A stretch of 64,000 nt of DNA from an uncultured Mycoplasmatales bacterium (lineage in GTDB: Bacteria > Bacillota_I > Bacilli_A > UBA3375), in assembly GCA_937936465.1 (NCBI GenBank), contig CALDDH010000003.1, positions 50,763 through 114,762 on the forward strand, written 5' to 3'. The notes beneath the pieces are model-generated. The model did no database searches. It saw only the letters and a list, made by a program, of their open reading frames with translations, and was not told the origin of the DNA. The position numbers and the translations under genes are program-made. Positions 51,790 to 62,706 of this stretch are shown here, piece by piece (position 1 is the stretch's first letter; the number at the start of each line of letters is the position of its first letter).

Positions 51790-52719
51790 ATGTTTAAAAA
51801 CATTCATTTTCCATTTATTAAAATAATTTCAGTCTTTATGATTTTCTTATTTGTCTTTGTATGGCAAATAAACAAAGAAATTATTGTAAATATCGATGGA
51901 GAAAGTCAAATCATTTCAACTAATCAAATATTTGCCAAAAGTTTAATTGAAGACGTTGCAAATGAACATGATTTAGAAGAATTTTCGATTCCAGATCAAC
52001 CAATATTTTTAACTGATTATAGTAATATTGAAATAAACACACCTAAAAAAGTAAAAATAAATATTGAAGATCAAGTTTACGATATTGAAACATATTCCAA
52101 TACAATTGAAACATTAACACATGAATTTAACAATTATTTACAAGAAGAAGGAAATAAAAATCAAGTTATTTTTGAAGGTTATAAACAAGATGATCAAATA
52201 AATGATCAGCAAACTTTAAAAGCAACATTAGTCCAAACAAAATTAGAAACTAAAACAAAAACTGAAGCCTTAGAGCCAAAATATATTGATAATGATGATA
52301 TTTATGTTGGTGAAGAAGTTTTAATTTATGAAGGTAGCGATAAAAAAACTGTCAATACATATGAAAAAATCTATAAAAACAATAAAATATATTCATCAAA
52401 AATAATTAACTCTGAAATAGTTGATCAAGGTGAGAGGCCTGTTATCTATGTTGGTACAAAAGAAAAAGTTATTAATAATTTAGATACATGGAATCAAATT
52501 GCCAATTGTGAATCATCTTCTAATTGGAGTGCCAACACAGGAAATGGTTATTATGGTGGACTTCAAATAAGTAAAGCAACATGGGATAGTTATGCACCAA
52601 GTGTTGGGATATCAACGGATTACCCATATCAAGCATCAAAAGATGAACAAATTTTAGTTGCAGAGCAAATACAAAAAAATCAAGGTTGGTCTTCATGGGG
52701 TTCATGTTCACCAATTTAA
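51790..52719 (+). CDS. secreted/anchored DUF348-G5-Rpf-type transglycosylase-like protein
   Basis: N-terminal TM; G5-like middle (YVGEEVLIYEGSDKKTVNTYEKIYKNNK...); C-terminal WNQIANCESSSNWSANTGNGYYGGLQISKATW, the Rpf catalytic-domain signature with the Glu. Confidence 0.8.
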   Translation: MFKNIHFPFIKIISVFMIFLFVFVWQINKEIIVNIDGESQIISTNQIFAKSLIEDVANEHDLEEFSIPDQPIFLTDYSNIEINTPKKVKINIEDQVYDIETYSNTIETLTHEFNNYLQEEGNKNQVIFEGYKQDDQINDQQTLKATLVQTKLETKTKTEALEPKYIDNDDIYVGEEVLIYEGSDKKTVNTYEKIYKNNKIYSSKIINSEIVDQGERPVIYVGTKEKVINNLDTWNQIANCESSSNWSANTGNGYYGGLQISKATWDSYAPSVGISTDYPYQASKDEQILVAEQIQKNQGWSSWGSCSPI

Positions 52720-52726
52720 TTAAAAT

Positions 52727-52760
52727 AATGAAAAGAGCTTAATTAAAAGCTCTTTTCATT
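52727..52760. terminator. bidirectional terminator between the convergent rpf-like and ABC permease genes
   Basis: 14-bp perfect stem aatgaaaagagctt/aagctcttttcatt with a 6-nt loop. Overlaps the permease stop codon. Confidence 0.75.
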
Positions 52761-54138
52761 ATTTTAAATATTTACTAATTTTTTTTTTAGTTATTCTTCT
52801 AATACCCAGAAGTGAAATAAAACTGCTAAGTATTAGGATGTATAGCATAATTATTATATAAAAATCAATTGTTAAAATCGAATTGAAATATAACTTAAAG
52901 ATTGTATCACTTAAAAATAAACCGTAAAAAATTAAATAACTAATAAATGCACCTATAAAGTTTATACTTGCTTCAAATATATTTTGATAGAATATTATTT
53001 TACGTAAATCTTTTTTCAAGTAACCAAATGAATATAAGATTGATAACTCTTTATTATCACTAATATTTTTATTTATATTTAATAAAAACAAAATAAACAA
53101 AGTAATCAGCGTAATAATTAAAATTATCAATGAATTAAAGATATATACTCCTGCAATAATATGTTTATATTCACCATTTTTAATTTCATATTGTGAATAT
53201 AATTTAATATTTGGATAGTAACTTTCTAAAATTTGAGAAATTTCATTAATGTGTTTCTCATCATCCACTTCTACTACCATGACTTGATAACCTGTTCCAT
53301 ACGCATCTAACCAGTTACTATAACTTGCTAGTTGACCATTGTAATAATCATTAAGACCATCATCATAATTACTATTAATTAGATATGTATCATATGACTC
53401 TTCACCTTTGTCTTGAGGTTTATTTTGGTTTGCTGTATATATATAATATTGATCATTTATTTTAATTTGATAATTTGTATTATAAATTCCTGAAATAATA
53501 TACTCTTTATTCTCATCTATTGTTTTTTCAGTCTCTTGATCAGTATATGAAATTGGTAAAGTTATTGTTTGACCAATTAATTTCTGATAGGAACTAGTAC
53601 CAGATGTTTGCATAATCATTTGTGCCATTACATCAGGAATTAAAATTTGATTTGATTTATCTGCTGGAAAATTACCAACTAAGACCTCAAGATAATCTGG
53701 ATTATATATTTCAGATCCATCATACTCGACAGGTGATGATTTAAAACTAAAATACACTTCTTCAGGTGCTCGAACATATGAAGTGATATTTTTTAAACTC
53801 TCAGGAAAATCATCTTTATCAATCATTAACTCTAAACGTTTACCTTCATAATCTGCCATGAACCCTGTTGATGAATTCATGCCAACATTTGTAAAATATA
53901 TATCTTCAATGTACTGGTTTTCTATTAACTGATCTATTTCTTCTGTTTGAAAATATAAATCCTCACCATTTCCATATAAATTATATTCTGAATATTCTTT
54001 TTGAATTTGATCTGTAACATTTGTTAAATCAACAATTATTGCATTCTCACTTACTTCTTGATATAACATATCTTCAGTTTTATTGGCAATCCCAACTAAT
54101 AAAGATATAACAATTAGGAAAAAAAGTAATAAAATCAT
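52759..54138 (-). CDS. FtsX/MacB-type ABC permease (1 TM + ~300-aa ectodomain + 3 TM)
   Basis: The topology pattern and the C-terminal FtsX-like block ELSILYSFGYLKKDLRKIIFYQ. Confidence 0.72.
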   Translation of the reverse strand: MILLLFFLIVISLLVGIANKTEDMLYQEVSENAIIVDLTNVTDQIQKEYSEYNLYGNGEDLYFQTEEIDQLIENQYIEDIYFTNVGMNSSTGFMADYEGKRLELMIDKDDFPESLKNITSYVRAPEEVYFSFKSSPVEYDGSEIYNPDYLEVLVGNFPADKSNQILIPDVMAQMIMQTSGTSSYQKLIGQTITLPISYTDQETEKTIDENKEYIISGIYNTNYQIKINDQYYIYTANQNKPQDKGEESYDTYLINSNYDDGLNDYYNGQLASYSNWLDAYGTGYQVMVVEVDDEKHINEISQILESYYPNIKLYSQYEIKNGEYKHIIAGVYIFNSLIILIITLITLFILFLLNINKNISDNKELSILYSFGYLKKDLRKIIFYQNIFEASINFIGAFISYLIFYGLFLSDTIFKLYFNSILTIDFYIIIMLYILILSSFISLLGIRRITKKKISKYLK

Positions 54139-55386: not shown

Positions 55387-55830
55387 TTAATTTAAAATAA
55401 TTATTGCTAAATTTAAAATACTAGCAAATGATAACCAAGCAATATATGGAATAATTAAATAAACATATTGTCGATTACGATTAATGTATATTAAATAAGC
55501 TGTTAGTATAATCATTATTAAAATCATCAAGTCAGCTATAACAAACATCTGGAAATTAAAGAAAACAAATGACCAAATTAAGTTTATAATTAACTGAATA
55601 ATATAAATTATAATTGATCTATAGTTTTTATATTTAATAATGAAATATAGAAATGCTCCTAATAAACCATAAAGAATTGTCCAAGCAATTGGAAACACTA
55701 AAACAGGTGGGGCAAAAAATGGTTGATTTAAATTTATATAAAAATTTTCAGATTCAAAAAAAATTGAACTCAATCCTCCTAATAATGGTATTAAAAATAT
55801 ATATAAAATTAACTTTACTCTTTCTAACAT
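55387..55830 (-). CDS. tspO: TspO/MBR (tryptophan-rich sensory protein, CrtK) family
   Basis: 147 aa, 5 TM, LNQPFFAPPVLVFPIAWTILYGLLGAF. Strong AAAGGAG RBS. Confidence 0.8.
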   Translation of the reverse strand: MLERVKLILYIFLIPLLGGLSSIFFESENFYINLNQPFFAPPVLVFPIAWTILYGLLGAFLYFIIKYKNYRSIIIYIIQLIINLIWSFVFFNFQMFVIADLMILIMIILTAYLIYINRNRQYVYLIIPYIAWLSFASILNLAIIILN

Positions 55831-55849
55831 TTTTTCTCCTTTTTTTAAA

Positions 55850-56389
55850 CTAATAACATCTTTGTATTAAAAACTGATTTATAAACTTAGTTAAATTATC
55901 ATATGTATTACCAATAAATATTTCTAGGTTATCTAAATCAGCACGTTTTGAATAGTCAACAAATAGTTCACCATAGCCAAAAAACTCATTGACATGGTCA
56001 TATTTATTTTGATCATCAAATTTTAAATATAGTATAACTGGCTTATCATCTAACCCAAGTGCATATGCCTCTTCCAAATCACTTTCATTAATTTGATAAT
56101 CATCAGGTATTCTTGGGTCTTGAAAGTAACTAGCAACTTCATTTGTAACAATTTCTCCTTCATAATAATCTAAATTATGTTGATCAGCAATTGCTTTGAT
56201 ATTATCTTGATTGTTTTCTGTACATGAATAATCTATTTGATTATTTTCTTTAACACTAGTAATATTATTACTTGCTTTACTGACTGACTGATTAAATTTA
56301 GCATCAAAGAAATTGATGAGCATTATAAATAATAGTGTAGTTATAAATAAAATTAAAAAAATATAACTTATGATTTTAAATATTTTCAT
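55850..56389 (-). CDS. hypothetical N-terminally anchored acidic protein (2 Cys)
   Basis: TM at residues ~5-27, extracytoplasmic remainder. Overlaps the upstream gene by 14 nt. No motif recognised. Confidence 0.45.
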   Translation of the reverse strand: MKIFKIISYIFLILFITTLLFIMLINFFDAKFNQSVSKASNNITSVKENNQIDYSCTENNQDNIKAIADQHNLDYYEGEIVTNEVASYFQDPRIPDDYQINESDLEEAYALGLDDKPVILYLKFDDQNKYDHVNEFFGYGELFVDYSKRADLDNLEIFIGNTYDNLTKFINQFLIQRCY

Positions 56390-57269
56390 TGATGACTCCT
56401 AAGCTTTGATAAATAAATAAACATTTTGAACCTTCTATTTTGATTTGTTTTTTAACTAAATCAAAACCAAGGCCTGTTTGAGATTCTAATTTAAAATAAA
56501 TATTATTAATAATTAAAGTATCATCAGATAATTTTAAAGGTGTTTGATTATCATCATATACTGTTGTCTCTAAATCAATATTGATATCAATAAAATTTAA
56601 AAAACTCAAATCAACATCAACACCATTAATACTTATAGTACCAAAGTGGTAATCGTCATCTACATCAACAAATGGATTATCAAATTGTGGTAGTTTAATT
56701 GATATTTGTGCTTTAATTATTTCAATGATTTGATCACTATTTAGATCATATTTATTTTTTAAAAAGTTTATTTTAGCTTCTATTTGCAAACGATACTCAA
56801 TAATTTTATTACTTATCATATTTTCAATATTTACTATCATAGATTGAATTTTTTTGATTCCTTTATTCTTAAAACTATTTAATTTAGAACTTATTAAATT
56901 ATTGTTTTTAACTTTTAAATTACTTAAAACATTACTTATATTATTAATATAGATAGGTTTGATATTTAATTCATAATAATTTTTTACAGTATTTTTATTT
57001 AATTGATTATTCTCTATTTTATCTTTAATTAAGTCTTGATTATCTTCAGATAATAATAATCCAGCAATTAAGTAAAACTTATTAACAGATATTTGATTGT
57101 TGATCTTTCCATATTTCTCAATATTCTTTTGCATAAATTGTTCATTTGTTTCTTGATTACTTGCTATATATATATCAAAGGCAATCATACTTACAGTTAC
57201 TCCAATAATTAAACCTAATAAATATATAAAGATTTTATTTTTAATTATTTTTAAGCCAAGATTTAACAT
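56376..57269 (-). CDS. hypothetical N-terminally anchored Asn/Ile-rich protein
   Basis: One TM (FIYLLGLIIGVTVSMIAF). Abuts the crtO-like stop. No motif recognised. Confidence 0.45.
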   Translation of the reverse strand: MLNLGLKIIKNKIFIYLLGLIIGVTVSMIAFDIYIASNQETNEQFMQKNIEKYGKINNQISVNKFYLIAGLLLSEDNQDLIKDKIENNQLNKNTVKNYYELNIKPIYINNISNVLSNLKVKNNNLISSKLNSFKNKGIKKIQSMIVNIENMISNKIIEYRLQIEAKINFLKNKYDLNSDQIIEIIKAQISIKLPQFDNPFVDVDDDYHFGTISINGVDVDLSFLNFIDINIDLETTVYDDNQTPLKLSDDTLIINNIYFKLESQTGLGFDLVKKQIKIEGSKCLFIYQSLGVINENI

Positions 57270-57716
57270 TTATCTCCCCACAGATTTAATTATTCTTTGT
57301 ATTCTAACTTTATTATAATAAATAATTATAATAAAAGGTAAATTAAATACTAATAAAAAAACAAAATTAATTATTAAAACATTAATATTTATAAAAAGAA
57401 ATGGCAGTAATCCAACAAATGGAATTGTATGAATTAATAATGCTTTTGCTAGTTCAAGGTCATATTCTTTTAAATATTCTTTTTTTTTTGATTTGATTTT
57501 TGTTTTATCAAATTCAGAAATTGATGGCAATTTTTCTTTATAAATTTTACTGAAACTTAATAATTTTTCCAATTTTTTATTTGTTTTTAATTGGAAACTT
57601 AACTTACTTTTCTTTCTTTCTAAAACCCAATCCAATGAAATGTAAAATAATAACCAATAGATCATGAAAAGGATTATTATTATAATTTTAATCATTAGTA
57701 TATACGCCCTTTCCAT
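57270..57716 (-). CDS. small membrane protein, CrtO-like (glycosyl-diaponeurosporenoate acyltransferase family) candidate
   Basis: The C-terminal LVFNLPFIIIIYYNKVRIQRII resembles the N-[IL]-P-x5-(R/Y)-Y-N-(R/K)-x-R signature I recall for S. aureus CrtO. The central Lys-rich loop and AKALLIH correspond to RAELTHW. AAGGA RBS. An alternative TAATG-coupled start lies at 57695. Confidence 0.5.
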   Translation of the reverse strand: MERAYILMIKIIIIILFMIYWLLFYISLDWVLERKKSKLSFQLKTNKKLEKLLSFSKIYKEKLPSISEFDKTKIKSKKKEYLKEYDLELAKALLIHTIPFVGLLPFLFININVLIINFVFLLVFNLPFIIIIYYNKVRIQRIIKSVGR

Positions 57717-58639
57717 TTTTTCCTTTTAGTAATAATAGATCCAAAAAAGATTAATATAAAGTTTACCAAGTATAATGGCCATAAAAATGTATAAATATAT
57801 TTTGATTCTAAATATTTATTCTCCATAAAAATAAATATAGTTGTAATAATTAAATAATTAATCAATATTTGATGTGCATCAAGAAAAATATTAAATATTA
57901 GTAAAATCATTATAAAAATATATGAAAATAGTAATAATGAATTGATTTTTTTAATGTTTCTTAATCCATAATTTATATTTTTAGACCAACCTTCATAAAG
58001 TTCTCGATAAGACTTATACATATGGATTTTTAAACTTTTACTTTTAAATATTTTTATTTCTCCTACTTTAACAATTTCTTTAGCAAGTTCTAAATCTTCA
58101 ACTATTTGATCTTGAATTATTTTATGCATTCCAACTTCTTTGTATAACTTATCACTTATTAAATAAAACCCTCCAAATAATTCTTGATTTGTATTCAAAA
58201 AATGAAAATTCAAGTATAAAATTTGCTGGAAAAATAGTGAGAAATTTTCTATTAAACCTTGGTTAACAAATTTTGGTATTGTTGTGTATACTTGCTTAGA
58301 TGTTTTTTTATTTACAATTTTTTCTATCTCAGAAATATCAAGGTTGTATACATCTGCATCTAAAAAACATAATTCACTGTGTATGGCATGAGCGTACCCT
58401 TCAATTATCGCATTACTTTTTCCAATTATTTCATTATCAATTTTTTGATCAATTTCAATAATATTGGCATTTGGATAATTATCCTGCATAAATTTCAAAC
58501 TTCCATCAACAGATATATCATCAATTAATATTAATTGATGACCATTATTTAAAATATTATGATAATCAGTCAGTGTTTTATGTAAATTATTTATTTCATC
58601 ACGAACTGGAATAATAAATGTTATTTTTTTATTAGGCAT
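57695..58639 (-). CDS. family-2 glycosyltransferase with a C-terminal TM region, CrtQ-like
   Basis: TFIIPVRDE, LILIDDISVDGS, GKSNA..EG, CFLDADV, MYKSYRELYEGWSKN, ...KKWKGRIY. Each block parallels S. aureus CrtQ as I recall it. Confidence 0.7.
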   Translation of the reverse strand: MPNKKITFIIPVRDEINNLHKTLTDYHNILNNGHQLILIDDISVDGSLKFMQDNYPNANIIEIDQKIDNEIIGKSNAIIEGYAHAIHSELCFLDADVYNLDISEIEKIVNKKTSKQVYTTIPKFVNQGLIENFSLFFQQILYLNFHFLNTNQELFGGFYLISDKLYKEVGMHKIIQDQIVEDLELAKEIVKVGEIKIFKSKSLKIHMYKSYRELYEGWSKNINYGLRNIKKINSLLLFSYIFIMILLIFNIFLDAHQILINYLIITTIFIFMENKYLESKYIYTFLWPLYLVNFILIFFGSIITKRKKWKGRIY

Positions 58640-59124: not shown

Positions 59125-59664
59125 TTAACTCCTTTTGTTTAACTGATAAAAATAAAAACTACTTTTACCATATTTTTTAAGTTTATCTTGTTTAAACAAA
59201 TCAAACTCCAAGTCTTTTCTTGAAGAAAACTCTAAAATAACTATTGTATCAGGGTTACAAATTGTAATTAACTTTTCAAATACATTAGTTAATTGATTTA
59301 TATCCATTTCATATGGTGGGTCTAAAAAGATAAAATCAAATTTCTTTTTATTATATTGTAAATAAGTTGTTACATCTTGGTTCATAAATTTAATATTATT
59401 TGGAATTTTTTTACTATTTTCTAAATAACATCTTTTACTTTCTTTGGAGTTATCAACACTTGTAACATCTTTTGCTCCTCTTGATGTGGCTTCAAAACTC
59501 ATTGATAATGAACCAGCAAATAAATCTAAGAAACTTTTATCAATAATATCAAATTGTAATATATTAAATAAACTTTCTTTTGCATTATCCTTTGTTGGTC
59601 TTATTGTATCGCCTTTTGGTGAAACTAATTTTCTTCCCCTTAATTTTCCAGCTATAACTCTCAT
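59125..59664 (-). CDS. rsmD: 16S rRNA m2G966 methyltransferase
   Basis: MRVIAGKLRGRKL, DLFAGS, FLDPPY. Confidence 0.9.
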   Translation of the reverse strand: MRVIAGKLRGRKLVSPKGDTIRPTKDNAKESLFNILQFDIIDKSFLDLFAGSLSMSFEATSRGAKDVTSVDNSKESKRCYLENSKKIPNNIKFMNQDVTTYLQYNKKKFDFIFLDPPYEMDINQLTNVFEKLITICNPDTIVILEFSSRKDLEFDLFKQDKLKKYGKSSFYFYQLNKRS

Positions 59665-59672
59665 AAAACTCC

Positions 59673-59855
59673 TTATTTAATAAATAAATCAATTACTATA
59701 TATATTATTAATCCAATTAATATTATTCGATGAATTAATAATTCAAGTTTTATTTTTTTATTTTTATTTTTCATTTTGACAAGTATTTCACTTAGTACTT
59801 CAATATAATTTAGTTCATCATAGTTTTTCATCTCGATTAACCCCATATTCTGCAA
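59673..59855 (-). CDS. possible small tail-anchored membrane protein
   Basis: 60-aa ORF with a C-terminal TM (IILIGLIIYIVIDLF). Overlaps the ybeY 3' end by 38 nt. No homology recognised. Confidence 0.25.
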   Translation of the reverse strand: MQNMGLIEMKNYDELNYIEVLSEILVKMKNKNKKIKLELLIHRIILIGLIIYIVIDLFIK

Positions 59856-60690
59856 GCAATTTTTCTTGCATTATATTCATTTCCTTTTCTTCTTTTTCAT
59901 CTAAATGATCATATCCTAATAAATGTAAATATCCATGTGTAATTAAAAATAATAGCTCTCTTTTAATAGAGTGATTATATTCTTTTGCTTGAATAAGCAT
60001 TTGAGGATAACAAATAATTATATCACCTAAATAATTTTGTTGCCCATCAACAAACGTTAATACATCTGTAACTTTATTAATATTACGAAACTCTTGATTT
60101 AATTCCTGGATTTTATCATTAGACACAAAAACAATTGACAATTCTTTGCCAAGTTGTTTCATACAAACTTCCAAGTACTTCACATATCCATTTATTTCAA
60201 TTTCATCAAATTGATATTCATATTGATTAACAATATTGATATGAGTCGCATTGTGTTTACAATCAATATTTTTACAAACATGGCACTTAAGTTCTTTACA
60301 TTGATTACAACAACCAAAAAATTCAATTTTCGAATCATGAACTAAATAATTATACTTATTTTTGATTAATACATCTAAACAATTTAAACCAGGTACATCA
60401 ACGTTATAAAACTGATGACAAGTAGTACATATAAAATGACCATGAATATTACCATTATATTCAAAGAATTTTGTTGAACCAACGTAAAATTCCTTAACAA
60501 TTTTTTCATTAATTAAAACTTCTAAATTATTATACATCGTAGAAATATTTCCTTCACCCGTTAATTGCATTAGATTATCAAAATCATAATGTTCTTCAAT
60601 GTTACTAGTAAAAATTTCAATTAATTTCTTACGTGATGCAGTTAACCTGTATCCTTTGCCTTGAAGACTTCTTTCAATTTTATGCGGCAT
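59818..60690 (-). CDS. ybeY: Fur-family regulator fused to YbeY endoribonuclease
   Basis: N-terminal half: GYRLTASRKKLIEIF, STMYNNLEVLINEKIV, HGHFICTTCHQF, GCCNQCKE. Linker: LKCHVCKNIDCKH. C-terminal half: TDVLTF and HGYLHLLGYDH. AAAGGAGG lies 4 nt before the ATG at 60690 (MPHKIERS). Confidence 0.8.
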   Translation of the reverse strand: MPHKIERSLQGKGYRLTASRKKLIEIFTSNIEEHYDFDNLMQLTGEGNISTMYNNLEVLINEKIVKEFYVGSTKFFEYNGNIHGHFICTTCHQFYNVDVPGLNCLDVLIKNKYNYLVHDSKIEFFGCCNQCKELKCHVCKNIDCKHNATHINIVNQYEYQFDEIEINGYVKYLEVCMKQLGKELSIVFVSNDKIQELNQEFRNINKVTDVLTFVDGQQNYLGDIIICYPQMLIQAKEYNHSIKRELLFLITHGYLHLLGYDHLDEKEEKEMNIMQEKLLAEYGVNRDEKL

Positions 60691-60700
60691 AATTCCTCCT

Positions 60701-61291
60701 TTAAATTTTTTGTGCACTTTCAATCGATTTAATCAATGTTATTTCATCAAGATATTCAAGTGATGATCCGACCGGAACACCTTGAGCCATTTTAGAGAAA
60801 TTTAAATTATATTCAACTAATTTATGTCTTAAATAAGCACTTGTAATCTCTCCTTCATTTGTTGATGGTAAGACTAAAACTATTTCTTGATATTTATTAT
60901 CTTTTATTTTATCCTTTAATAATTGTAAATTTAAATCCTTTTCAGTTAATCCATTAATTGGATCAATAATTCCACCAAGAACAAAATAATAATAAATACC
61001 TGGCATGACATTTTCAATTTTTAAAATATCTTTAGCTTTTGCTACTAACACTAGTTTATCATGATTACGATCATGATCTAAACATATATAACAAATTTCA
61101 TCTTCACTATAACCCTGACATTTGGAACAACGATTAATTTCTTTAATAGCATTCATTGCTTCAATTAATAGATTTATATTATCTTGATTAGTTTCAATCA
61201 AATCAAAAGCATATCTACTTGCTGTCTTTTCACCGACTCCCGGTAATATCTTAATTGCTTCCACTAATTGTTGAATTTTTTTAATTTCCAT
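60701..61291 (-). CDS. recR: recombination protein RecR
   Basis: LPGVGEKTASRYAF HhH, C4 zinc finger CSKCQGYSEDEICYIC, Toprim. Confidence 0.94.
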   Translation of the reverse strand: MEIKKIQQLVEAIKILPGVGEKTASRYAFDLIETNQDNINLLIEAMNAIKEINRCSKCQGYSEDEICYICLDHDRNHDKLVLVAKAKDILKIENVMPGIYYYFVLGGIIDPINGLTEKDLNLQLLKDKIKDNKYQEIVLVLPSTNEGEITSAYLRHKLVEYNLNFSKMAQGVPVGSSLEYLDEITLIKSIESAQKI

Positions 61292-61299
61292 TTTCCCGC

Positions 61300-62706
61300 C
61301 TATATGTAATTTAATGGGTCTTGTTGAACTCCATTTTGATGAACTTCAAAATGGACATGTTCACCCGTTACATTTCCTGTTGCTCCTTCATATCCAATAA
61401 CTTGTCCCTGTTCAACACTTTCTCCAACTGATACAGGTGGTGTACTTGCCATGTGTGCATATAATGTTTCATATCCATTTTGATGATCGACTACAACATG
61501 ATTACCATATGCTCCACCCCAACCTGCTGTTTTAACAACTCCATTATCAGCAGCGTAAATTGGTGCACCATACCAAGATTGAATATCAACACCACCATGA
61601 CCGCTATAGCAGTAAAAATCACATGTTATTGAAGTTGATGATCCCGGCCAAGCAAAATCCCCTGTTCCAACACCAGGAACTTCATAAGTTCCTTCTAAAG
61701 TAATTTTATTAATTGATTGTTCAATTACTTCAGAATTACTTTTTTCAGTGTATTGATTAACACCATTTGTTTGTTTAGTTGTATATGTAACTAACTCTGA
61801 TCCATTTTTACCTTTTTGAATAACTTCTGTGTCACCAATATCTAAATCATCTGTTTTTTTAACTTCTTTTCTGTATTTAACTGTTTCCTTTTTTTCTTCT
61901 TCATAATAAACCGATAAATCAACAATTGGATCTAATTGATTAACAATAATTTCTTGACCTAAATATAAAATGGTTTGATTATCAACATCAGGATTATTTA
62001 ATGATAACTCTAAATCATTTATTTTATTTTTTTTCTGAATTTGATCAAGACTTTGATTTTCAGTTATTGTTGCATATTTTTTTTCCTGATCACCATGTAG
62101 AACATAAAATAATAAATCTTCTTTATTATCAATTATTTTACTACCTGGGACGTATGTTTCTTCAACTGTAATATTATTTTCTAATTTCATATCTTTGTAT
62201 TCACGGCCATTTTGTGTATATGATTGAAAATCACCTGTATCTATGAAATATTCAGCTTTAGTATTATCTGGAATAATTGTTTTTAATACTTGCTCTTGAA
62301 CCCACTCCAAATCTTCTTTGTTTTTTATATAGACCTTTTCTTTTCCATCGATCGTAATTTGATAACCTTCATTTAATTCATATGTATTTTCTTCGACATA
62401 CTTTTCAACTTCTTGATTAGACTGATCTGTAGTATTATAATTTAATAAAGATCCTGTTTGATTAACTGTCGTATTATACATTATATCATCCGTCGTATTT
62501 AAATCCATATTATTTTGACTATTAATTTCTTGGTTATCATTTTCTTGTGTTACACCAATTAATTGATCTTCATCATAAACATATGCTGTTTGATAAATTT
62601 GTGGATAAAACATTTCAGTCGGAGAATTAAATATTCCAAGTATTAAAACTAATATAAAACTAAATATAATTTGTATAATATTTTTTCTTACCTTTAAAAA
62701 ATGCAT
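61300..62706 (-). CDS. secreted G5-domain M23 metallopeptidase
   Basis: N-terminal TM/signal; G5 block (...VIQKGKNGSELVTYTTKQTNG...); M23 motifs HGGVD, NHVVVDH, GEHVHFEV. Confidence 0.85.
   Translation of the reverse strand: MHFLKVRKNIIQIIFSFILVLILGIFNSPTEMFYPQIYQTAYVYDEDQLIGVTQENDNQEINSQNNMDLNTTDDIMYNTTVNQTGSLLNYNTTDQSNQEVEKYVEENTYELNEGYQITIDGKEKVYIKNKEDLEWVQEQVLKTIIPDNTKAEYFIDTGDFQSYTQNGREYKDMKLENNITVEETYVPGSKIIDNKEDLLFYVLHGDQEKKYATITENQSLDQIQKKNKINDLELSLNNPDVDNQTILYLGQEIIVNQLDPIVDLSVYYEEEKKETVKYRKEVKKTDDLDIGDTEVIQKGKNGSELVTYTTKQTNGVNQYTEKSNSEVIEQSINKITLEGTYEVPGVGTGDFAWPGSSTSITCDFYCYSGHGGVDIQSWYGAPIYAADNGVVKTAGWGGAYGNHVVVDHQNGYETLYAHMASTPPVSVGESVEQGQVIGYEGATGNVTGEHVHFEVHQNGVQQDPLNYI

Follow-up and report, generated by a model that had tools for sequence, protein, structure and literature searches.

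A fused fur-ybeY gene in a Mollicutes-type lineage and an independent reverse-order pairing in Myxococcota

Introduction

YbeY is a Zn-dependent maturation factor of the 30S ribosomal subunit and has been linked to processing of the 3' end of 16S rRNA. Its partners Era, uS11 and YbeZ all function in ribosome biogenesis. Here we analyzed a gene, fur::ybeY, in which a Fur family metalloregulator and YbeY are encoded as a single protein. The gene lies on the minus strand (59818..60690) of a 64,000-nucleotide stretch of DNA from an uncultured Mycoplasmatales bacterium (assembly GCA_937936465.1, contig CALDDH010000003.1, positions 50,763 to 114,762). This whole stretch is hereafter called the window, and positions without a further designation refer to it. 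Proteins and loci found in the searches are designated by P and L numbers, respectively.

Standalone YbeY (TIGR00043/PF02130; Escherichia coli 1xm5, Staphylococcus aureus 7y7o and Bacillus subtilis YqfG) has the same fold, the same zinc motif and the counterparts of R202 and T208 of the window protein. In the window, however, a 150-residue Fur module and a linker precede YbeY in the same polypeptide, and the gene is located between recR and rsmD instead of in the phoH-ybeY-dgkA-era cluster. The closest solved structures of the Fur family are those of B. subtilis PerR (2fe3/3f8n) and Bacillus cereus Fur (9ire). The Fur module resembles them in its winged helix, dimerization domain, two CxxC pairs, HxH motif and YNN helix, and it has ligands at four of five regulatory positions of PerR. 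It differs in that it is only ~25% identical, has Glu for D85 and Asn for D104, carries a Cys-rich C-terminal extension and is attached to YbeY.

Other fusions of YbeY have been described. YbeY-Era fusions are known in Clostridia, Selenomonadales and Thermoleophilum, and YbeY physically binds Era (PMC10582724). These fusions mirror the fact that YbeY and Era are documented partners in the assembly of the 30S subunit, both physically and genetically, and they are the best Rosetta-stone precedent for the present case. There, however, YbeY is joined to a GTPase of ribosome assembly and not to a transcription-factor or metal-sensor family, and Fur is not mentioned (PMC10582724). Further multidomain forms combine YbeY with PhoH (P0013), a class-Ib aminoacyl-tRNA synthetase-like domain (P0219), DUF3048 (P0228) or Metallophos (P0265), but none of these partners is a DNA-binding metalloregulator. 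Full-text literature searches retrieved no paper connecting Fur with YbeY or reporting their fusion. fur::ybeY represents a new domain architecture, absent from the literature searched, that is built from two well-known families. An earlier reading of the window from its sequence alone (the sequence-only reading) had likewise found the architecture unfamiliar; such fusions were nevertheless already present, unrecognized, in public sequence collections in two phyla.

Results

One uninterrupted reading frame encodes a complete Fur and a complete YbeY

The frame of fur::ybeY is uninterrupted from its ATG to a TGA stop and encodes 290 aa. An identical protein (P0001) is recorded in NCBI, ENA and Logan. 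Profile searches bore out the proposal of the sequence-only reading that this single ORF contains two complete modules, both of which scored above the cutoffs. FUR (PF01475) matched aa 12-124 with 50.7 bits (cutoff 23.1) and covered profile positions 2-120 of 121, so that the suggested search of the N-terminal half detected a Fur domain. YbeY (PF02130) matched aa 179-281 with 129 bits (cutoff 25), and the NCBIfam YbeY equivalog TIGR00043 matched aa 155-285 with 128.5 bits (cutoff 45). The motifs quoted in that reading were all found, namely GYRLTASRKKLIEIF and STMYNNLEVL in the Fur half, the two CxxC pairs, TDVLTF and HGYLHLLGYDH. The fusion was the sole YbeY match and the sole Fur match within the window, which has a G+C content of ~27% and tightly packed genes on the minus strand.

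The Shine-Dalgarno sequence AAAGGAGG (60695..60702, minus strand), which was read directly from the sequence, places GGAGG 5 nt upstream of the ATG and overlaps the stop codon of recR (60701-60703). No in-frame ATG, GTG or TTG was found between aa 120 and 169, and the junction of the two modules contains neither a start codon nor a ribosome-binding site. YbeY is therefore not separately translatable from the window gene, in line with the absence of a start codon at the junction noted in the sequence-only reading, and production of a separate YbeY from an internal start was ruled out.

Since the lineage is labelled Mollicutes and the ORF stops at TGA, we also considered genetic code 4 (TGA = Trp). 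Trp is encoded by TGG (n = 47). Only 4 of 26 long ORFs terminate at TGA, which makes it a minority stop codon. Further, the C-termini of the family coincide with the TGA stop of the window gene. Thus, genetic code 11 holds, and the possibility that code 4 lengthens the ORF was rejected on the basis of TGG use and the C-termini. The 'WWTKL...' tails of two related proteins (P0009 and P0005) look like gene-calling artefacts, in which code 4 was assumed for 'Mollicutes' and TGA was read as Trp.

The Fur module largely retains the residues of a DNA-binding metal sensor

The winged-helix DNA-binding domain of the Fur module (aa 1-75; 60466..60690, minus strand) was delimited using Pfam, alignment with PerR 2fe3, the AlphaFold2 (AF2) model (predicted local distance difference test, pLDDT, 94-97) and invariant residues. 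It contains the recognition helix (aa 48-61, STMYNNL; 60508-60549, minus strand). The dimerization domain (aa 76-133; 60292..60465, minus strand) was assigned using the PerR alignment and an AF2 pLDDT of ~90. The module therefore has the winged helix and the alpha/beta dimerization domain of the Fur fold, both modelled with a pLDDT >90. Foldseek matched the AF2 model to Fur/PerR structures at TM 0.5-0.7 (probability 1.0, E 1e-9 to 1e-7), and the closest solved relative was B. subtilis PerR 2fe3 (E 4.5e-12). Within the winged-helix domain, L9, G13, Y14, R15, T17, S19, R20, F27, H34, N48, T51, Y53, N54, N55 and E62 are invariant in the family. Among these, N48, T51, Y53, N54 and N55 belong to the recognition helix, which reads ATMYNNL in the family and ATVYNNL in PerR.

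Residue alignment with B. subtilis PerR (2fe3) assigned the metal sites. In the regulatory site, PerR H37, H91 and H93 correspond to H34, H83 and H85, respectively, PerR D85 corresponds to E77 (a conservative change) and PerR D104 to N96. Three of the five PerR regulatory positions are thus identical, one is conservatively changed (E for D) and one is Asn. The motif H83-G-H85 is located at 60436-60444 (minus strand) in the dimerization domain, which also contains E77 and N96. PerR C96, C99, C136 and C139 correspond to C88, C91, C128 and C131, which form the two CxxC pairs of the structural Zn(Cys)4 site of the Fur family (60418-60429 and 60298-60309, minus strand). H34, E77, H83, H85 and the four Cys do not vary within the family. 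The sequence-only reading had described the regulatory site as reduced to HGH. This description does not hold, because plausible ligands (H34, E77, H83 and H85) occupy all but one of the five PerR positions, and their presence and invariance indicate that the site is largely intact.

The module fell below the cutoffs of the PerR, Fur and Zur subfamily models. Two PerR models scored 44.5 bits (cutoff 180) and 42.2 bits (cutoff 200), the iron-type Fur model TransRegFurBacil scored 55.4 bits (cutoff 220) and the Zur model PRK11639 scored 25.4 bits (cutoff 167). The motif is I-H-G-H, not of the HHDH type, and ligands of site 3 are absent. When the Fur module alone was used as a query, only distant generic Fur proteins (24-31% identity) were retrieved, and no subfamily was assigned. 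The NCBIfam scores placed the Fur modules of both phyla described below closer to Fur/PerR than to Zur, and no module of either phylum reached any equivalog cutoff. Zur was the lowest-scoring of the three models, including for relatives in both phyla. Accordingly, a Zur-type (zinc) identity is unsupported, and a zinc-specific logic is not favored. The conserved recognition helix is indirect evidence that the Fur module may bind DNA as a homodimer in a metal-dependent, sequence-specific manner, whereas the operator searches described below were negative or uninformative.

The YbeY module retains the zinc motif and the active-cleft residues

The YbeY module comprises aa 151-290 (59821..60240, minus strand), as indicated by Pfam, TIGR00043 and the match to S. 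aureus YbeY 7y7o (E 1.3e-23 at the sequence level; TM 0.84 and rmsd 1.9 A using Foldseek). The structure 1oz9 was matched at TM 0.85 by Foldseek, and the module thus has the YbeY fold. The zinc motif H-G-x2-H-x2-G-x-D-H is present as H252GYLH256LLGYDH262 (H252-x3-H256-x5-H262; 59905-59937, minus strand), together with the gate-keeping Arg and the Thr of the active cleft. R202, T208 (T208-DVLTF) and H252/H256/H262 are invariant in the family. By motif spacing, they equate to R59, T65 and H114/H118/H124 of E. coli YbeY, the motif definition and spacing of which were taken from bioRxiv 10.64898/2026.08.26.747345. According to the same 2026 preprint, YbeY is a metzincin-like enzyme that isoaspartylates ribosomal protein uS11 in a Zn-dependent manner (bioRxiv 10.64898/2026.08.26.747345), which makes the metal dependence of YbeY more central. 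This reaction has thus been reported as the core activity of YbeY, instead of or alongside the role in processing of the 16S 3' end that the sequence-only reading had assigned to it.

The fusion is conserved and interconverts with an overlapping gene pair

The sequence-only reading had suggested that relatives be examined for the same fusion or two separate genes, and both were found. The Fur->YbeY fusion occurs in ~16 distinct sequences with 36-56% identity between lineages (P0001-P0010, P0139-P0142 and two complete genomes). Nine of these other two-domain proteins aligned end to end with P0001 at 44-50% identity. An exhaustive profile search of 1.84 billion representatives yielded five fused clusters at 50% identity (P0139, P0001, P0140, P0141 and P0142). 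The complete genomes of "Mollicutes bacterium LVI A0039" (CP136953.1) and "A0078" (CP136956.1) encode fusions of 363 aa. The gene order around the fusion was invariably recR–fusion–small ORF–rsmD–coaD, and more fully (gdpP-rplI-)dnaB-(G5/M23 peptidase)-recR-fusion-small ORF-rsmD-coaD. The two LVI loci (L002 and L003) showed the same non-synonymous divergence, 0.11, in YbeY as in the DNA-binding domain of Fur, and synonymous sites were saturated (pS 0.67-0.91). Thus, the two halves are under equally strong purifying selection. We concluded that fur::ybeY is a genuine, evolutionarily maintained fusion.

In the proteins of a long-form clade (P0003-P0009 and P0139), the Fur winged helix is partly duplicated as an additional N-terminal domain, which spans aa 1-88 in the versions of 363 aa (hhalign probability 96.8%, E 2e-10). 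The duplicate (L002 5725-5990 and L003 5725-5990) lacks the His of the metal site, and the domain is absent from the window protein. A match of PF21148 to P0007 was spurious, as no stretch passed alone.

In sister lineages, fur and then ybeY are present as two genes with overlapping stop and start in the same cassette. L094 is unambiguously split (recR-fur-ybeY, with a TAATG stop/start overlap), as is L095 (fur-ybeY with a 23-nt overlap, followed by the small ORF, rsmD and coaD). L082 encodes the closest standalone YbeY (P0011, 51% identical), located after a 145-aa fur with an 11-nt overlap and in the same synteny. The P0011 gene has its own ATG (MEINIV...) and AGGA; a second, distinct YbeY (P0145) also begins with MEINIV. 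A more distant standalone YbeY (P0012) is in the canonical ybeY-dgkA-cdd context. Further, the canonical phoH-ybeY-dgkA-era context, which ybeY has left in the lineages with the fusion or pair, is still seen in L088. These results show that the fusion interconverts with a translationally coupled fur-ybeY pair.

The fur/ybeY junction of L082 (4975-5003) lies in the A-rich sequence GAAAAAAAGGAAAAAAATGG, which includes an in-frame A-AAA-AAG heptamer, and an indel of 1 nt would fuse the two genes. An assembly indel is therefore possible for that contig. The A-run also looks like a natural hotspot for switching between the split and fused states. Programmed -1 frameshifting at A-AAA-AAG was rejected, because ybeY is in the +1 frame relative to fur and a -1 slip cannot fuse them.

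Neighbor-joining (NJ) trees set the clade apart from outgroups (94% bootstrap for the split from the YbeY outgroup). The trees of the two modules disagreed, and fused and split forms were interleaved with weak support. Thus, the NJ trees did not settle the polarity of fusion versus fission, as the module trees conflicted and were poorly supported.

YbeY and Fur are paired in the reverse order in Myxococcota

The exhaustive search also detected two proteins in which YbeY precedes FUR, namely P0149 (281 aa) and P0159 (341 aa). The P0149 family comprises 11 clusters (P0149 and P0288-P0297; 53-61% identity), recorded as "MAG: rRNA maturation RNase YbeY [Myxococcaceae bacterium]" or "Fur family ... 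regulator". At L089 and L090 the gene order is metK-(trypsin)-S1/P1 nuclease-YbeY::Fur-small ORF, and at L092 separate ybeY and fur genes with a 4-nt overlap are found in the same synteny. The YbeY catalytic residues are all invariant in this family, and its Fur is canonical (ATVYRTL and EHHDHLIC; 113 bits to PRK09462). AF2 predicted two confident modules in the Myxococcota protein, with a predicted template modelling score (pTM) of 0.63.

The Myxococcota proteins (P0149 and P0288-P0297; L089, L090 and L092) thus combine the same two families as the window protein, either as overlapping genes or fused by a flexible linker, and share with it the conservation of all key residues and a small ORF that follows. 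In contrast to the window, the order is opposite, the Fur is canonical, metK and the S1/P1 nuclease gene lie upstream, and the phylum is a different one; the origin is independent. The small ORF after the Myxococcota ybeY-fur unit (L089, L090 and L092) encodes 64-68 aa; its sequence was not compared with that of the window. A third YbeY->Fur fusion, P0159 (L093, GCA_039030115.1), has a long linker and is only 39% identical to the Myxococcota family. Its gene is located on a 1.9-kb contig, flanked by an rsmH fragment and def, and it may represent a further independent event.

We also surveyed 78 unrelated loci of Fur family genes (758 kb of flanks). None had ybeY within ~6 kb of fur (0/78), and the same hidden Markov model recovered YbeY in every positive-control locus. 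This background, together with the pairing in two phyla, indicates that the association of Fur with YbeY is specific. The distribution further indicates that it arose at least two times, in opposite orders, each with coupled and fused forms. The suggestion in the sequence-only reading that the fusion is a sign of functional coupling is strengthened by this independent reverse-order pairing and fusion in Myxococcota.

The linker and the predicted overall structure

The modules of the window protein are joined by a 17-residue Cys/His-rich linker, LKCHVCKNIDCKHNATH (aa 134-150; 60241..60291, minus strand; AF2 pLDDT ~60), with the motif C136-x2-C139-x4-C144-x-H146. The motif falls within LKCHVCKNIDCKH (aa 134-146; nt 60253-60291). 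C-x2-C-x4-C-x-H is also present in P0002; P0141 and P0142 have a variant of it, and the long-form clade, P0010 and P0140 lack it. The same stretch, which is found together with a GCC..C variant of the second CxxC, is also the C-terminal tail of a standalone Fur (P0148, L094), the gene of which is followed by a separate ybeY. Hence, the linker was not created by the fusion. This distribution identifies the stretch as a C-terminal tail that is ancestral in this Fur subfamily and may provide an extra Cys4 site. The Cys/His-rich linker noted in the sequence-only reading is therefore present, but it is confined to a subclade, and its interpretation as a fusion-specific zinc knuckle was rejected, as it is missing from most fused lineages and present on a standalone Fur.

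AF2, run on an alignment of 49 sequences, gave a mean pLDDT of 91.4, with both modules >90, the linker region (aa 131-150) ~60 and a pTM of 0.60. This pattern of confidence suggests two rigid modules on a flexible tether. The structure prediction proposed in the sequence-only reading thus supported the two modules but not their mutual packing. The models, as predictions, neither support nor exclude an interface between Fur and YbeY.

Genes flanking the fusion

recR (60701..61291, minus strand) lies upstream of the fusion in the window and precedes the fusion or split pair in L002, L003, L083, L085 and L094. Because it starts 10 nt downstream of recR, the fusion probably shares a transcript with dnaB, the M23 peptidase gene and recR. 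A small ORF of 57 aa with a DEL.YI motif and a C-terminal transmembrane helix (59673..59846, minus strand) overlaps the 3' end of the fusion by 29 nt. The fused ORF terminates in TGA-TGA (59812-59820), which in another frame encodes the DEL motif of this small ORF. The next gene encodes an rsmD-like 16S rRNA methyltransferase (Cons_hypoth95; 59125..59664, minus strand) and is the downstream neighbor in all Mollicutes-type loci. In L002, L082, L083, L085 and L095, homologous small ORFs come after the fusion or the split pair (for example, L002 6809-6973, L082 5473-5673 and L095 1898-2113). They encode 53-71 aa with DEL.YI, a charged helix and a C-terminal transmembrane helix, overlap the 3' end of ybeY and abut rsmD. 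No Pfam family matched the small ORF.

The window also encodes a G5+M23 peptidase (61300-62706), a G5+transglycosylase-like (Rpf-type) protein (51790-52719) and an FtsX-like permease (52759-54138). Genes acting on peptidoglycan are unexpected under the label 'Mollicutes', and the lineage may therefore be walled relatives. Downstream of coaD, a run of genes at 55387-58639 encodes a GT2 glycosyltransferase, a CrtO-like acyltransferase and TspO, which hints at carotenoid-type lipid modification.

Discussion

We tentatively favor the interpretation that fur::ybeY encodes a bifunctional protein in which a Fur metal sensor is tethered to the YbeY of this lineage, as a covalent Fur-YbeY partnership, although we consider the case for it slightly short of evenly balanced. 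In this mechanism, the Fur module would dimerize and bind a divalent metal, giving a dimer that bears two YbeY units, and the supply or activity of YbeY would be tied stoichiometrically to a metal or redox sensor. Where the genes are split, the partnership of Fur and YbeY would be non-covalent, and the fusion would be its covalent form. The gene would have arisen from a coupled fur-ybeY pair in the housekeeping operon dnaB-recR-fur-ybeY-small ORF-rsmD-coaD, and a frameshift or the loss of a stop at the overlapping stop/start would interconvert the split and fused states.

Several observations weigh against this interpretation. The fifth regulatory position of the Fur module is Asn (N96), not Asp or Glu, and AF2 predicted no confident interdomain packing for either domain order (pTM 0.60 and 0.63). 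The fusion gene lacks its own promoter region, which leaves classical autoregulation not evident, and no operator was found for it in the PerR-box and Fur-box searches of the window. PerR-box-like sites were not enriched in the window (16 versus 10.3 expected). Matches to the Fur-box-like 7-1-7 pattern (TGATAATNATTATCA, with two or fewer mismatches) numbered 12 versus 3.3 expected across the window (for example, at 138, 7918, 18411, 38512 and 60888), but this enrichment is probably a bias of codon composition, because the matches are mostly in coding sequence and dinucleotide shuffles ignore codon bias. As 11 of the 12 are located in coding sequence, and the single intergenic match flanks serS/tadA and an Rpf-like gene, Fur-box operators in the window were dropped as a lead. 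Around the ybeY-fur operon of Myxococcota, no canonical Fur boxes were found above chance. Finally, overlapping neighbor genes can fuse by a simple mechanism, and such a fusion could be almost neutral.

This last point leads to an explanation that we regard as possible though not probable, namely that an ordinary metal-responsive repressor and an ordinary 30S factor share an operon, and were fused almost neutrally, without cross-talk beyond co-expression. Such a history would fit the interconversion of split and fused states within the clade and their interleaving in the trees, the short and variable linkers of low AF2 confidence, the existence of both domain orders without an interdomain interface in AF2 models (pTM ~0.6), and the fact that each module keeps all features of its standalone family. 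It is less easily reconciled with the maintenance of the stop/start-overlap adjacency over deep divergence (36-56% identity), with repeated fusion and independent origin in two unrelated phyla when 0/78 other fur loci lie near ybeY, and with the departure of ybeY from its canonical phoH-ybeY-dgkA-era context in these lineages. Moreover, translational coupling and fusion are typical of partners required in equal amounts. It is hardly credible that the fusion is an artefact in which two separate genes were joined by a frameshift in sequencing or assembly, or by use of the wrong genetic code. The A-rich run GAAAAAAAGGAAAAAAATGG at the split of L082, where an indel of 1 nt would switch the state, and the TGA stop of an ORF in a lineage labelled Mollicutes could be cited for it, but the frame is continuous in ~16 divergent sequences, which differ in linker length and come from independent assemblies, two complete genomes among them. 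Further, there is neither a start codon nor a ribosome-binding site at the window junction, code 11 is supported and the identical protein is present in NCBI, ENA and Logan. The artefact was therefore rejected on the basis of the ~16 fused sequences and the two complete genomes.

Alternatively, the Fur fold may have been co-opted as an accessory of YbeY for dimerization, RNA or ribosome binding, or metal buffering, and no longer act as a transcription factor. We judge this to be improbable. The module is divergent (best NCBIfam equivalog score 55 bits against a cutoff of 220; relatives outside the clade 24-31% identical) and is encoded in a constitutive housekeeping operon beside rsmD, with no operator detected. 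The duplicated winged helix-turn-helix of the long, 363-aa forms (hhalign probability 96.8%, E 2e-10) and the CCCH knuckle-like linker of the window subclade (C-x2-C-x4-C-x-H) would reinforce such an accessory role. However, the recognition helix is invariant and keeps the DNA-reading signature of PerR/Fur (ATMYNNL versus ATVYNNL in PerR), the Myxococcota partner is a canonical Fur (ATVYRTL and HHDH; 113 bits to PRK09462), and the Fur subfamily of the window also occurs as standalone proteins.

A broader version of the tethered-sensor interpretation is that Fur proteins are direct physical partners and regulators of YbeY, such that a metal- or peroxide-dependent conformational switch of the Fur module gates the Zn-dependent action of YbeY on uS11 and the nascent 30S subunit. 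We consider this unlikely at present. If it were true, maturation of the small subunit would be coupled post-translationally to metal or redox status, and the fusions, in two orders and two phyla, would represent in covalent form a complex that the products of separate but translationally coupled fur and ybeY genes also form.

By itself, the window gene would be a curiosity; it is the recurrence in the reverse order and the existence of split forms that turn a link between Fur and YbeY into a testable hypothesis. It is testable because the LVI genomes carry strain-style designations, the natural split and fused variants can serve as internal controls and both halves can be examined in existing assays. 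The finding also exposes a blind spot of annotation, in that Fur/YbeY fusions are named only 'YbeY' or 'Fur family'. The recurrent pairing of Fur and YbeY, in two phyla and in opposite orders, constitutes Rosetta-stone evidence for an unrecognized functional link between metal or redox homeostasis and maturation of the 30S subunit.

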